Positions 26,429 through 29,129 of a stretch of DNA of 64,000 bases are shown one piece after another. Under the pieces are notes generated by a model. That model worked only from the letters and a program-made list of their open reading frames with translations, had not been told where the DNA came from and made no database searches. This DNA comes from a virus. Position 1 is the stretch's first letter. The number at the start of each line of letters is the position of its first letter. The DNA is taken from positions 40,568-104,567 of the IMG/VR virus record IMGVR_UViG_3300045988_091188. One strand, written 5' to 3'. The position numbers and the translations under genes are program-made.

Positions 26429-26504
26429 ACTCCGGTAGTTCAAAGGTTAGAACGGGCGACTTATAATCGCTTGATGCTTGGTTCGAGTCCAGCTCGGAGT
26501 ACCA
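26429..26504 (+). tRNA. tRNA-Ile (anticodon TAT, reads AUA); CCA encoded
   Basis: Cloverleaf: acceptor actccgg/tcggagt, D-arm gttc..gaac, anticodon stem ggcga/tcgct with loop cttataa, T-arm ttgg-TTCGAGT-ccag. Confidence 0.6.
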
Positions 26505-26543
26505 TTTAAGAGGACAGACCCAATAGGAGGGCCCTCTTGCTAT

Positions 26544-26657
26544 AAGACGCATACAGCAAATCTATTTCCAGAATAGTCAAATGGTTAAGACATTTCAACT
26601 CAAAGTAAAAAATTATCGGTTCGAATCCGATTTCCGGAGCTAAATAGCTAGCGTCTT
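26544..26657 (+). ncRNA. stem-closed ACAGCAAAT-box element, copy A (closing stem aagacgc/gcgtctt); encloses an irregular tRNA-like structure at 26567-26639 that lacks an encoded CCA
   Basis: 5' arm aagacgc 26544-26550, box atacagcaaat 26551-26561, 3' arm gcgtctt 26651-26657. Interior has acceptor tccagaa/ttccgga, D-arm and T-arm atcgg-TTCGAAT-ccgat, but a poorly paired anticodon stem (loop actcaaa or ctcaaag). Confidence 0.45.
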
Positions 26658-26718
26658 GAAAACATTTGAAAAACTTTTATGAATATGATATAATATTTAT
26701 AGAAAGTAAGAAAGGAAG

Positions 26719-26925
26719 TTGCATATGGATAAGAAGTTATATCTTGCACAACTCGCGGCCGAGGCTCTTTCTTGTTATAAAAATGAGGATAGTATTTGTG
26801 ATGCTATTTGGCTTATGAATGGTGGAGTTGGTGGCCCCGAGGAACAGTGGGAGAACTTTAACGCAACTTTCAAGGATACCTTTGGTATTTCTTATGATGA
26901 AGCTAAACAACTGAATCTTTTTTGA
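26719..26925 (+). CDS. hypothetical protein (68 aa)
   Basis: Promoter TTGAAA-17-TATAAT plus leader agaaagtaagaaaggaagt then ATG. Confidence 0.45.
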   Translation: MHMDKKLYLAQLAAEALSCYKNEDSICDAIWLMNGGVGGPEEQWENFNATFKDTFGISYDEAKQLNLF

Positions 26926-26950
26926 AAAACAATAAAAAATATTGTATAAT
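26922..26950 (+). promoter_or_regulatory. consensus promoter TTGAAA-17-TATAAT for the tRNA cluster (identical copy at 27746-27774)
   Basis: ttgaaaaacaataaaaaatattgtataat occurs twice verbatim, each followed by atttatgtaagg and tRNA genes. Confidence 0.6.
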
Positions 26951-26958
26951 ATTTATGT

Positions 26959-27032
26959 AAGGCAGACACAGCAAATCTTTTATTAAATAAAACACTTATT
27001 TTTGGTTTAAGAAAGTTTATTTATTCTGCCTT
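26959..27032 (+). ncRNA. stem-closed ACAGCAAAT-box element, copy B (stem aaggcaga/tctgcctt), AT-rich interior, abuts tRNA-Asn
   Basis: aaggcaga 26959-26966, cacagcaaat, tctgcctt 27025-27032. Confidence 0.4.
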
Positions 27033-27038
27033 GAGCTT

Positions 27039-27115
27039 GGGTCGGTAGCTCAGAAGAGTAGAGCGCTTGCCTGTTAAGCAAGATGTCGTGGGTTCGAGCC
27101 CCACCCTTCCCGCCA
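27039..27115 (+). tRNA. tRNA-Asn (GTT)
   Basis: Anticodon stem cttgc/gcaag with loop ctgttaa; T-arm gtggg-TTCGAGC-cccac; CCA encoded; two mismatches in the acceptor stem. Confidence 0.6.
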
Positions 27116-27240
27116 AAGTCGAGTTTGTGAGTAGCGCCGCGACTTTAACCCTAAACTCTCAATTCGTCCACTGCGAACTAAAATAATAGGCTGGCCCATA
27201 GAGCGACGGGTAGTTCTGAAACAAATAGTTGCTCTTTTAT

Positions 27241-27317
27241 GTTCTCGTGGTGCAATAGGCAGACACGCGTGGTTTAGAACCATGATGTTGCGGGTTCGAC
27301 TCCCGCCGGGAACACCA
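27241..27317 (+). tRNA. atypical class-I tRNA with anticodon TAG (reads Leu CUA/CUG); Leu-like D-arm and A73
   Basis: Acceptor gttctcg/cgggaac, D region gtgcaataggcagacac (near-identical to the D-arm of the adjacent Leu(GAG)), anticodon stem cgtgg/ccatg with loop tttagaa, 5-nt variable loop, T-arm gcggg-TTCGACT-cccgc, discriminator A, CCA. Confidence 0.5.
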
Positions 27318-27475
27318 GATGGTTCCGGTGACATTGTCTTAAACCCATATAAACCGGCGGAGCTATGGCCCGTAGTTGAAGACTGGATTTCTTGTCGTAA
27401 ATGGCCAAGCATTTATGATGGCTAGTCAGTATTAAAAGAGGAAGCCTTGGAACTCGATCAATACCATAGAAATAT

Positions 27476-27562
27476 GCGCGTGTGCTGGAATAGGCAGACA
27501 GGCAAGCTTGAGGTGCTCGTGTTCGTAAGAGCGTATGGGTTCAAGTCCCATCATGCGCACCA
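27476..27562 (+). tRNA. tRNA-Leu (GAG), class II
   Basis: Acceptor gcgcgtg/catgcgc, D-arm ctggaataggcagacag, anticodon loop ttgaggt (G37 U38 as in Leu), long variable arm, T-arm atggg-TTCAAGT-cccat, A73, CCA. Confidence 0.65.
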
Positions 27563-27666
27563 TGGTTTCTACTGATTTCCCATGCCCAATAAGTCAGAAG
27601 TGTGATATATGTGAACGACGAGGCGCAAAGTACACGGGGTGCGTACGACCCTTCCTCGCCTTATAC

Positions 27667-27743
27667 GGTGGCGTAGTTCAGTAGGCTAGAACGTCGGCCT
27701 GTCACGCCGAAGGTCACGGGTTCAAACCCCGTCGTCATCGCCA
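27667..27743 (+). tRNA. tRNA-Asp (GTC)
   Basis: Anticodon stem tcggc/gccga with loop ctgtcac; T-arm acggg-TTCAAAC-cccgt; G73; CCA. Confidence 0.7.
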
Positions 27744-27957
27744 ATTTGAAAAACAATAAAAAATATTGTATAATATTTATGTAAGGTTAAGAAAGAACAA
27801 AGTATCGCAAGTCGTATATAGGCAGCGATAGCGCGCAAGCGAATCAGCAATGCGGTGTCCCTTTTAGGTTGATGCCTGGCACATTGGACTGTAGTAGCCG
27901 ATAAATTAGAGCGTAGTTCTCCTTGATTGACACGACCAATCATCTTAATCACAATAT

Positions 27958-28033
27958 GGGGCATTAGCTCAGTTGGGAGAGCGCCTGCCTTGCAAGCAGG
28001 AGGTCACGAGTTCGACCCTCGTATGTTCCACCA
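27958..28033 (+). tRNA. tRNA-Ala (TGC)
   Basis: G3:U70 wobble pair in acceptor ggggcat/atgttcc; anticodon loop cttgcaa; T-arm acgag-TTCGACC-ctcgt; A73; CCA. Confidence 0.75.
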
Positions 28034-28275
28034 TAGGTATCTACTAATAATTATATATGATACCGTCTAATAATTACAGGTTTTTATTGATTTCATTGCC
28101 ATAAGAACAATAGGGCATTCCTATTTCCGTCCTTAATAGAAATAGGTGGTTTTCAGTGACGCCGCTGTTCACCAACTAGAAGATAAGTTAATATTCTCTT
28201 TATATATAGTAATGACAGTATAGCTTATAATAAACAATGGCTATTATTAAATAAGACAGAAAGAGATTATTAAAA

Positions 28276-28350
28276 GTGCAGATATGCTCGGTTAGTCAAG
28301 TGGTAAAGACGCTGGCCTTTCACGCCAGAAACACGGGTTCGACTCCCGTA
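28276..28350 (+). tRNA. tRNA-Glu (TTC)
   Basis: Anticodon stem ctggc/gccag with loop ctttcac; T-arm cacggg-TTCGACT-cccgt; CCA. Confidence 0.7.
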
Positions 28351-28388
28351 CCGAGTACCATTAAACAATAGAAAAGGAGATTGCTATT

Positions 28389-28625
28389 ATGAAGAATGTT
28401 CACGGGAAGTTCAACTCTTTCGCAGAGCTTGGTAAGGCTCTCGGAATTAAGGTTCCGCAGAATGTGGAAAAGGAACGTAAGTGTTCTAATTGCGGAAACC
28501 CGCTTCGCAAGATTGGTAATACAAATGTTTATATTTGTGATTATTCCATTCTTGAGGACAACGAGTTGAATGGAACTCCCGTGCAGGTGTTCACTAAATG
28601 TGGCGCCGTCGAACTTAGCGATTAA
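28389..28625 (+). CDS. hypothetical protein (78 aa), possible zinc ribbon (CSNCGNPL...C..C)
   Basis: SD AAAAGGAG; ORF track. Confidence 0.5.
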   Translation: MKNVHGKFNSFAELGKALGIKVPQNVEKERKCSNCGNPLRKIGNTNVYICDYSILEDNELNGTPVQVFTKCGAVELSD

Positions 28626-28664
28626 CTAAAAGACCTGAGCAAGTCAATAAACTGCTCTTTAAAT

Positions 28665-28742
28665 GGCCTTGTCGACGAAATGGCAAAGTCGCCACCCTCT
28701 CAAGGTGGAGGTTGATGGGTTCGAATCCCTCCAAGGTCACCA
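28665..28742 (+). tRNA. irregular tRNA-like gene, anticodon loop ctctcaa (CTC, Glu-type) with a defective T-stem
   Basis: Acceptor ggccttg/caaggtc plus A plus CCA; anticodon stem ccacc/ggtgg is perfect; T-loop TTCGAAT flanked by atggg/ccctc (only 3 bp). Loop differs by one base from a CTA suppressor loop. Confidence 0.35.
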
Positions 28743-29054
28743 GATGTATGGGTTCCACAGTTTCGAGTGAAAGAAAAGACGGGCCTTTCTTGTGCGTAGA
28801 GTATGGTACGGCAAGAATGAATTATTGATATGTGGCACGCCCTTGCTTAATTAAAGTGAAACGGTTCCGGCTGATACATCCAGCGGAGGGGCGCAAGAGT
28901 ACCGTGGCTATTAGAGTTATTCCAAAATATAGAATATATGAGGCGAGAATAAAAAGCGAGGAGTGGCAACGCAGACCAACTCAAGAGTGTCTAGGCGTTA
29001 AGTAGTAAAAATATATTTTGGTTTCATTATAATTTAATTCTAATGGCTGTATAT

Positions 29055-29129
29055 CGCGGGAAGGGTGTTGGTTCCCAGTCGAGTCTCATAAACTCGATTA
29101 CGCGAGTTCAATTCTCGCTCCCGCACCCA
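29055..29129 (+). tRNA. tRNA-Met (CAT) with a C1-A72 mismatch (initiator-like)
   Basis: Acceptor cgcggga/tcccgca (C1 opposite A72), anticodon stem cgagt/actcg with loop ctcataa, T-arm gcgag-TTCAATT-ctcgc, CCA; lies inside the spurious ORF 29043..29294. Confidence 0.6.

Follow-up and report, generated by a model that had tools for sequence, protein, structure and literature searches.

Type I tRNA-Leu genes with UAG and CAA anticodons in the tRNA array of a phage

Type I tRNA-Leu, which has a short variable loop in place of the long variable arm of class II, is regarded in the literature as a rarity of Streptomyces and of mitochondria with specially adapted leucyl-tRNA synthetases (LeuRS). Two tRNA genes of this type, with the anticodons UAG and CAA, lie in a 64,000-nucleotide stretch of viral DNA (positions 40,568 to 104,567 of IMG/VR record IMGVR_UViG_3300045988_091188), referred to as a whole as the window. 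In Streptomyces coelicolor, a type I tRNA-Leu(CAA) with a 5-nucleotide (nt) variable loop is leucylated by the organism's own LeuRS and is indispensable (Fan et al. 2019, PMC6614811), and the statement in a preliminary description of the window that bacterial tRNA-Leu are always class II is thus not strictly true. The LeuRS enzymes of E. coli and S. purpurogeneiscleroticus do not charge the S. coelicolor tRNA, and the leucine-specific domain of the enzyme decides between acceptance and rejection (PMC6614811). Like the genes of the window, this tRNA combines a leucine anticodon with a 5-nt variable loop, U8-A14 and A73, and it too coexists with class II tRNA-Leu isoacceptors in one cell. Unlike them, it is chromosomal, in a high-GC actinobacterium whose LeuRS has a special leucine-specific domain. 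The genes of the window are borne by a 37% GC, gut-type phage, and here the UAG isoacceptor is type I as well.

Animal mitochondrial tRNA-Leu resemble the phage genes in their short variable loop and in a leucine identity that works through A73 and A14. Their core is degenerate and floppy and they are served by a dedicated LeuRS, whereas the phage tRNAs have a full canonical elbow. Streptomyces type I tRNA is also a substrate of the human mitochondrial LeuRS (PMC6614811, PMC9976931).

A short-variable-loop tRNA-Leu(UAG) is mentioned in one sentence as part of a tRNA cluster of Mycobacterium mucogenicum/phocaicum (Behra et al. 2019, PMC6582537), and 73-74-nt tRNA-Leu genes are annotated in GenBank for Mycobacterium phage Wildcat and Cellulophaga phage phi19:1. 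In Wildcat a class I Leu(UAG) adjoins a class I Leu(CAA); phi19:1 has a class I Leu(UAG). The mycobacterial cluster (PMC6582537), the L-arrays (PMC8421152) and both phages share the setting found in the window, namely long one-strand tRNA arrays, often with a transfer-messenger RNA (tmRNA), and the same anticodons. In those clusters and phages the short-arm tRNA-Leu have been annotated or briefly mentioned only, and the phage family described here is unrelated to cultured phages at the DNA level. No paper that discusses the type in phages was found in the literature searched. Given the Streptomyces, mycobacterial, Wildcat and phi19:1 precedents, the kind is already known, and the two genes of the window are therefore additional examples of it.

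Two tRNAs with leucine anticodons and short variable loops

The four tRNA-Leu genes of the window, with two parts of the first, are as follows.

27241..27317, + strand: type I (short variable loop) tRNA-Leu(UAG), 77 nt; ARAGORN, Rfam
27248..27267, + strand: Leu-type D arm of this gene, with U8, G9, a 3-bp stem and the loop N13 A14 A15 U16 N17 G18 G19 N20 A20a N A21
27275..27277, + strand: its anticodon TAG (UAG), in the 7-nt loop TTTAGAA
44636..44712, + strand: type I tRNA-Leu(CAA), 77 nt; ARAGORN, Rfam
27476..27562, + strand: class II tRNA-Leu(GAG), 87 nt, 15-nt variable region, reads CUU/CUC; ARAGORN
36154..36240, + strand: class II tRNA-Leu(UAA), 87 nt, reads UUA/UUG; ARAGORN, Rfam at 55.7 bits

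As drawn by ARAGORN, both short tRNAs have 7/5 acceptor/T architecture, a 5-bp anticodon stem, a 3-bp D stem and an 11-nt D loop. Each has a 7-nt anticodon loop with U33 and A37, a 5-nt variable loop, A73 and an encoded CCA. In the UAG gene the acceptor strands (27241-27247 and 27307-27313) are followed by U8 and G9 and by a D stem GTG/CAC that closes the loop CAATAGGCAGA. The anticodon arm (27268-27284), the variable loop ATGTT (27285-27289) and the T arm (27290-27306) lead to A73 at 27314 and CCA at 27315-27317; U48, at 27289, can pair with A15. The CAA gene has the acceptor GCTCGAG/CTCGAGT (with G1.U72), U8 and G9, the D stem GGC/GCC and the D loop TAATTGGTATA. Its anticodon loop is CTCAAAC (CAA at 44670-44672), its variable loop TGTTT and its T arm GTGAG TTCGAGT CTCAC, with A73 and CCA. 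In a class II tRNA the variable arm exceeds 10 nt and includes a stem; the loops ATGTT and TGTTT are shorter and have none. Two sound class I tRNAs had been proposed at these positions, with the same anticodons, A73 and CCA, and ARAGORN and Rfam agree on both. Their description as miniaturised is overstated, as both are normal-sized class I tRNAs. The two class II genes named beside them, Leu(GAG) and Leu(UAA), were found by ARAGORN as well.

It is extremely improbable that the two genes are artefacts of ARAGORN, with a mis-assigned anticodon loop or as class II tRNAs with a mis-drawn variable region. ARAGORN does mishandle other odd tRNAs of the window, as it missed a 117-nt tRNA at 35952 and called a degenerate one at 26567. 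Nevertheless, the Rfam covariance model independently aligns both genes end to end (model positions 1-71), with 56.2 bits for the UAG gene and 59.8 bits for the CAA gene (gathering score 29). With 77 nt there is no space for an extra arm, and the segment lengths are exactly canonical. The centroid fold of the UAG gene is the cloverleaf. Moreover, 38 diverse class I tRNAs with leucine anticodons and the geometry of the window's genes align in the same register. Pairing in their cloverleaf reaches 99.2%, 19 of the 20 pairs show double (compensatory) changes, and U8, A14, A15, G18, G19, A21, U48, T54, T55, C56, A58 and A73 are invariant among them, as is A35.

The four leucine tRNAs (UAA, CAA, GAG and UAG) form one non-redundant set for all six leucine codons. 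Open reading frames (ORFs) of the window contain 863 leucine codons, of which 88 are CTA and 62 CTG. The tRNA-Leu(UAG) is expected to read CUA and CUG, and possibly all CUN codons if U34 is unmodified.

Amino-acid identity

The preliminary description left the identity of both tRNAs unclear, as leucine or another amino acid inserted at CUA/CUG and UUG. Bacterial LeuRS ignores the anticodon, and the E. coli enzyme can also do without the long arm (PMC9976931). The leucine identity elements are A73, A14, the A15-U48 pair, G18G19, A20a and contacts of the D loop with the T loop (PMC9976931, PMC2377443). Arm-less variants of E. coli tRNA-Leu are still active (PMC9976931), and deletion of the arm from an Aquifex tRNA-Leu retains about 8% of kcat/Km (PMC2377443, Table 1). 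Every E. coli and Aquifex element named in these two papers was found in both phage tRNAs, which carry U8-A14, A15-U48, G18G19 with U55/C56, A20a, U54-A58, a 3-bp D stem and A73. Their D arms share the design of E. coli leuV, TG-GCG-GAATTGGTAGA-CGC. Among 648 unique tRNAs from related phage loci, this leucine D-arm motif was present in 25 of 56 class II tRNA-Leu and in 1 of about 570 non-leucine tRNAs.

Classification was carried out blind to the anticodon. The anticodon arm and the variable region were removed, the class I candidates were excluded from training, and the leucine model was built from class II tRNAs only. For the UAG gene all 10 nearest neighbours were class II tRNA-Leu, and the leucine hidden Markov model (HMM) scored 35.4 bits against 23.5 bits for the next isotype. 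For the CAA gene 9 of 10 neighbours were class II tRNA-Leu, with 24.6 bits for the leucine HMM and 22.4 bits for the next isotype. The window's own class II genes scored 40.7 bits (GAG) and 49.5 bits (UAA) with the leucine HMM. From their bodies, the UAG tRNA would thus be firmly assigned to leucine and the CAA tRNA narrowly so.

The meaning of the codons was read from window proteins aligned to homologs of less than 75% identity, taken from related loci and from 89 distant NAPRTases, some of them cellular. In conserved columns, CTA stood at leucine in 12 of 13, CTG in 6 of 7 and TTG in 15 of 18; the corresponding figures are 59/66 for CTT, 19/20 for TTA and 8/9 for CTC. Over all columns, the leucine fraction was 0.64 for CTA, 0.68 for CTG, 0.62 for TTG, 0.66 for CTT, 0.71 for TTA and 0.61 for CTC. 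The leucine residues of the homologs are encoded by all six leucine codons. Sense-codon reassignment of CUA, CUG and UUG was rejected, because these codons align to leucine as often as CTT, TTA and CTC do.

It is therefore very unlikely that the two tRNAs insert another amino acid at CUA/CUG and UUG, by reassignment or by deliberate mistranslation, as yeast mitochondrial tRNA-Thr(UAG) and Ashbya tRNA-Ala(UAG) do on leucine codons (PMC7609411). Such an identity would find some support in the unusual union of class I architecture with a leucine anticodon and in the altered decoding that this phage appears to use elsewhere (TAG readthrough in some genes, with a CUA suppressor tRNA). Serine-inserting allo-tRNAs with leucine anticodons also exist in bacteria and phage-rich metagenomes (PMC5389517). 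These allo-tRNAs, and the nematode nev-tRNAs, which are class II and leucine-charged with glycine or isoleucine anticodons (PMC3333845), likewise show unexpected combinations of class and anticodon. In all four of these groups, however, the marks of the body belong to another isotype and decoding is changed, whereas in the phage tRNAs body and anticodon are both of leucine type. Allo-tRNAs have 8/4 or 9/3 stems, a long arm and G73; the phage tRNAs have 7/5 stems, a 5-nt variable loop and A73. The tRNAs that reassign CUN codons have an 8-nt anticodon loop on a His-derived body, or G3:U70; here the loop has 7 nt, 3:70 is U-A and the D arm is of leucine type. Both tRNAs lack the marks of other synthetases, with neither G3:U70 nor G73 nor an 8-nt anticodon loop. 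A non-leucine identity is also at odds with the leucine-type D arm, A15-U48 and A73, with the choice of the anticodon-blind classifiers and with the ordinary class II tRNA-Leu found as syntenic orthologs, and type I leucylation has its precedent in S. coelicolor (PMC6614811). The use of UUG as a start codon had been brought up in the same connection. The TTG starts come from a mechanical ORF list only, and each time an ATG lies a few codons downstream. Start codons are in any case read by the initiator tRNA.

Both genes are best explained as true type I leucine isoacceptors, part of the phage's near-complete tRNA set, leucylated by the host LeuRS and decoding as leucine (probability about 0.8). 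The tRNAs would be transcribed with the + strand array and then matured, with CCA already encoded. The host LeuRS would leucylate them through the core and elbow that they have in common with class II tRNA-Leu (U8-A14, A15-U48, G18G19-U55/C56, A20a, U54-A58) and through A73, with no need for the long arm. On the ribosome the UAG tRNA would decode CUA and CUG and the CAA tRNA UUG, all as leucine, while the class II Leu(GAG) and Leu(UAA) would serve the remaining leucine codons. From the alignments, nothing appears to point to a changed genetic code for leucine. For this window the leucine code can be treated as standard, and annotators can call both genes tRNA-Leu.

Several observations weigh against this reading. 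Charging would depend on the host enzyme, because the LeuRS of E. coli and of S. purpurogeneiscleroticus reject the S. coelicolor type I tRNA (PMC6614811). For the CAA gene the isotype margin is small (2.2 bits), and its nearest neighbours were mixed when training was bacterial-only, a set with just 11 class II tRNA-Leu. Its minimum free energy fold is an extended hairpin without the cloverleaf; the structure was judged by covariance-model and comparative evidence in place of thermodynamic folding. The homologs of the codon test came partly from related phages that may carry the same tRNAs. In addition, the UAG tRNA has A37, while G37 is usual in CUN-reading tRNA-Leu, where it is 1-methylguanosine (m1G). 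The CAA tRNA has C38, which breaks the A36-A37-A38 motif. Both tRNAs may therefore lack the usual anticodon-loop modifications. A36-A37-A38, together with prior N6-isopentenyladenosine at position 37 (i6A37), is named as a determinant for the methyltransferase TrmL (PMC9976931).

Distribution, conservation and origin

Nine other viral contigs matched a strict pattern that combined the Leu D arm, a fixed class I spacing and UAG. With a broader pattern the type was found in at least 120 viral contigs of IMG/VR and at 120 or more loci in bacterial contigs (one genome per species). Among the IMG/VR matches listed, 115 of 117 were tRNA-Leu by ARAGORN and 110 had A73, with a median of 13 tRNAs per locus. 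Among the bacterial loci listed, ARAGORN called 148 unique class I and 11 class II tRNA-Leu, and many of these loci lie in long tRNA arrays of Acidobacteriota, Myxococcota, cyanobacteria and others. The class I tRNAs of the listed bacterial loci include GAG and CAG anticodons, which are outside the selection made by the pattern. They have U48 in 147 of 148 cases and A73 in 122 of 148, compared with 39% and 41% in other class I tRNAs. Loci retrieved by the pattern are selected, with a bias to the Leu D arm, so that no prevalence is taken from them; they were used only for U48, A73, other anticodons and neighbouring leucine genes. In loci retrieved by protein homology, 12 of 66 unique tRNAs with leucine anticodons were class I and 54 class II. 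These counts suggest that tRNA arrays of phages, and bacterial tRNA arrays acquired by horizontal transfer, commonly carry type I tRNA-Leu.

Outside such arrays, a single chromosomal class I tRNA-Leu(UAA) of 76-78 nt was seen in many actinobacteria of the Intrasporangiaceae and Dermatophilaceae (Terrabacter, Knoellia, Janibacter, Ornithinibacter and others), and also in one Streptomyces olivoverticillatus. In the long arrays of Acidobacteriota, Archangium and cyanobacteria the leucine genes are almost all class I, with every anticodon.

Within the phage family, the UAG gene is identical in two related loci (L091 and L094); in a third (L093, 82% amino-acid identity) it differs by one change in the T loop. 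The CAA gene is identical in five IMG/VR loci (L010-L014), in two of which the neighbouring protein is only 80% identical. Since they are unchanged or differ by one base while many neighbouring tRNAs have been replaced, both genes appear to be under purifying selection.

When the array at 26429-45000 is compared with that of L093, whose proteins are about 82% identical, many tRNAs prove to have been exchanged or to have diverged strongly. The Ile(UAU) gene has 76 nt in the window and 95 nt in L093, and Asn, Glu(CUC), His, Lys, Gly and Ile(GAU) differ too. Leu(UAG), Leu(GAG), Ala and Arg(UCU) are identical or nearly so.

The conservation bears on whether the two RNAs decode at all. They might instead be decoys or sponges for host toxins that target tRNA, regulatory tRNA-like RNAs, or pseudogenes decaying since the arm was lost. 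Phage tRNAs are believed to act against host tRNases (PMC10264068, PMC11555353), the array holds a tRNA-like element whose anticodon is not conserved (26567-26640), and type I tRNA-Leu may not be a substrate for a LeuRS of the E. coli type (PMC6614811). Such roles are nevertheless unlikely. Both genes encode CCA and have undamaged, canonical anticodon loops, the anticodons fill exactly the two leucine boxes left uncovered by the class II genes, and conservation is near-perfect amid the turnover of neighbouring tRNAs. The wider family also retains leucine anticodons and keeps all stems through compensatory change.

The preliminary description had derived the UAG gene from a tRNA-Leu by deletion of the variable arm, pointing to a D arm nearly identical to that of the neighbouring Leu(GAG). 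This resemblance is confirmed, as the D arms of the two genes (TGGTGCAATAGGCAGACACG and TGCTGGAATAGGCAGACAGG) match at 17 of 20 positions. Descent from a tRNA-Leu is supported by the D arm, A15-U48, A73 and the classifiers, and for the CAA gene by synteny. A recent deletion from Leu(GAG) is not shown by the sequences and was set aside as the origin of the UAG gene, since the resemblance ends with the D arm; the acceptor and T arm match at only 15 of 25 positions. The Leu(GAG) gene itself is unchanged in L093 and is not listed by Rfam at the gathering score.

The slot upstream of the DUF2828 gene holds Leu(CAA) and then Cys(GCA) throughout the phage family. In eleven more distant relatives the Leu(CAA) of this slot is class II, with 82-87 nt and a variable region of 11-15 nt, and the 77-nt form occurs in the window's clade only. 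Several of the class II genes share the anticodon loop CTCAAAC and the D-loop sequence GGTATA with the gene at 44636. The arm was therefore lost, or the gene replaced, within the phage family. Positional orthology supports the view that the CAA gene arose from a class II tRNA-Leu(CAA) in this slot or took its place, the variable region going from 11-15 to 5 nt; deletion in place and replacement would fit the data equally.

The tRNA-Cys(GCA) next to it (44856-44942, + strand) has U73 and a 15-nt stem-loop variable arm, and is therefore class II. About a dozen relatives retain the arm, with compensatory changes, while in others the slot is occupied by a class I tRNA-Cys. In one of them (L074) the body of the class I tRNA-Cys is nearly that of the class II group of L015 and L071 (acceptor 5' strand GCGAACG), without the arm. 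Arm length thus appears to be labile both ways in this phage family, the arm having disappeared from tRNA-Leu and been added to tRNA-Cys at one and the same locus.

Whether loss of the arm is adaptive for mobile tRNA sets is doubtful. An arm-less tRNA-Leu might still be chargeable and yet invisible to host factors that grip the long arm of class II tRNAs. Candidates for the factors evaded are abortive-infection nucleotidyltransferase toxins of the MenT/AbiEii family, or mis-serylation by foreign seryl-tRNA synthetases across a broad host range. The long variable loop serves MenT3 as an anchor (PMC11541572), and AbiEii appears to prefer class II tRNAs (preprint 10.64898/2026.01.19.700257). If true, this would explain why type I tRNA-Leu is frequent in phage and horizontally moving bacterial arrays, although the literature calls nearly all bacterial tRNA-Leu type II. 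On the other hand, the phage family adds a long arm to tRNA-Cys, and most of the unique tRNA-Leu in the protein-retrieved loci (54/66, as above) remain class II. The genes raise a testable question, namely which bacterial LeuRS can charge a tRNA-Leu that has no long arm. It matters for phage host range, for the design of orthogonal tRNAs and for whether anti-phage toxins target the long arm. Experiments are within reach in cultured phages, for example Wildcat, a phage of M. smegmatis.

The tRNA array and its surroundings

The window DNA is phage-like, with about 37% G+C. ARAGORN found 31 tRNA genes and a tmRNA in it, all on the + strand between 26.4 and 45 kb, and Rfam confirmed 30 tRNAs and the tmRNA at the gathering score. 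The following features belong to the array or lie downstream of the tRNAs.

33083-33398, + strand: tmRNA with the tag DNDYFENYLAA, embedded in the tRNA array; ARAGORN, Rfam
45186-46706: DUF2828/DUF7788 protein
47118-49559: ORF resembling the major vault protein
54098-55369: RNA ligase
60969-61835: Thg1-like enzyme

The proteins were identified by a Pfam scan of the ten largest ORFs, which gave for the downstream genes an RNA ligase, the Thg1-like enzyme, enzymes of NAD salvage, the vault-protein-like ORF and the DUF2828/DUF7788 protein. The tmRNA and the DUF2828/DUF7788, vault-like, RNA ligase and Thg1-like genes suggest a module for RNA repair or RNA quality control that adjoins the tRNAs. 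No LeuRS gene was found among these ten ORFs, from a genome of roughly 120-150 kb, and the sole ORF of LeuRS size is the vault-protein-like one.

Identical copies of the NAPRTase protein of the window occur on 169 public contigs of up to 149.5 kb ('MAG TPA' in nr). Going by its homologs, hosts among gut Clostridia/Oscillospiraceae might be guessed at. Near-identical contigs of 96-122 kb are found in IMG/VR, as is a large family of relatives of 100-200 kb. When the tRNA region was compared with cultured phages by megablast, only generic tRNA matches came up, and there is therefore no close relative among cultured phages at the DNA level. The UAG tRNA gave no match in blastn against cultured phages, and the CAA tRNA is 81% identical to the annotated tRNA-Leu(CAA) of Wildcat.

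A third short 'Leu(CAA)' call, at 26567-26640 on the + strand, is not Leu-like. It has G73, no CCA, 36% GC and a mismatched, AT-rich anticodon stem, and it folds no better than shuffled sequences (z = -0.23). Its ortholog in the relative L093 (13919-13992) keeps the acceptor and T stems through compensatory changes and has a different 'anticodon', UGA. It is thus a conserved tRNA-like element. At 35952-36068 (+ strand), the 117-nt tRNA missed by ARAGORN was detected by Rfam with 49.8 bits. Its anticodon arm is interrupted by about 55 nt, and it could be an intron-containing or a disrupted tRNA. No tRNA-Tyr was called in the window.

In the region 38129-42357 (+ strand), three structural-looking ORFs at 38728-39804, 39786-40994 and 41017-42357 contain 2, 5 and 3 in-frame TAG codons, respectively. 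Homology to relatives runs through the in-frame TAGs, and glutamine is the commonest aligned residue where the homologs agree. Just downstream of these ORFs lies a suppressor tRNA(CUA) at 43808-43883, with G73 and a U1.U72 end. The pattern looks like a partial recoding of TAG to glutamine in late genes. In the related loci, 32 distinct CUA tRNAs were found.

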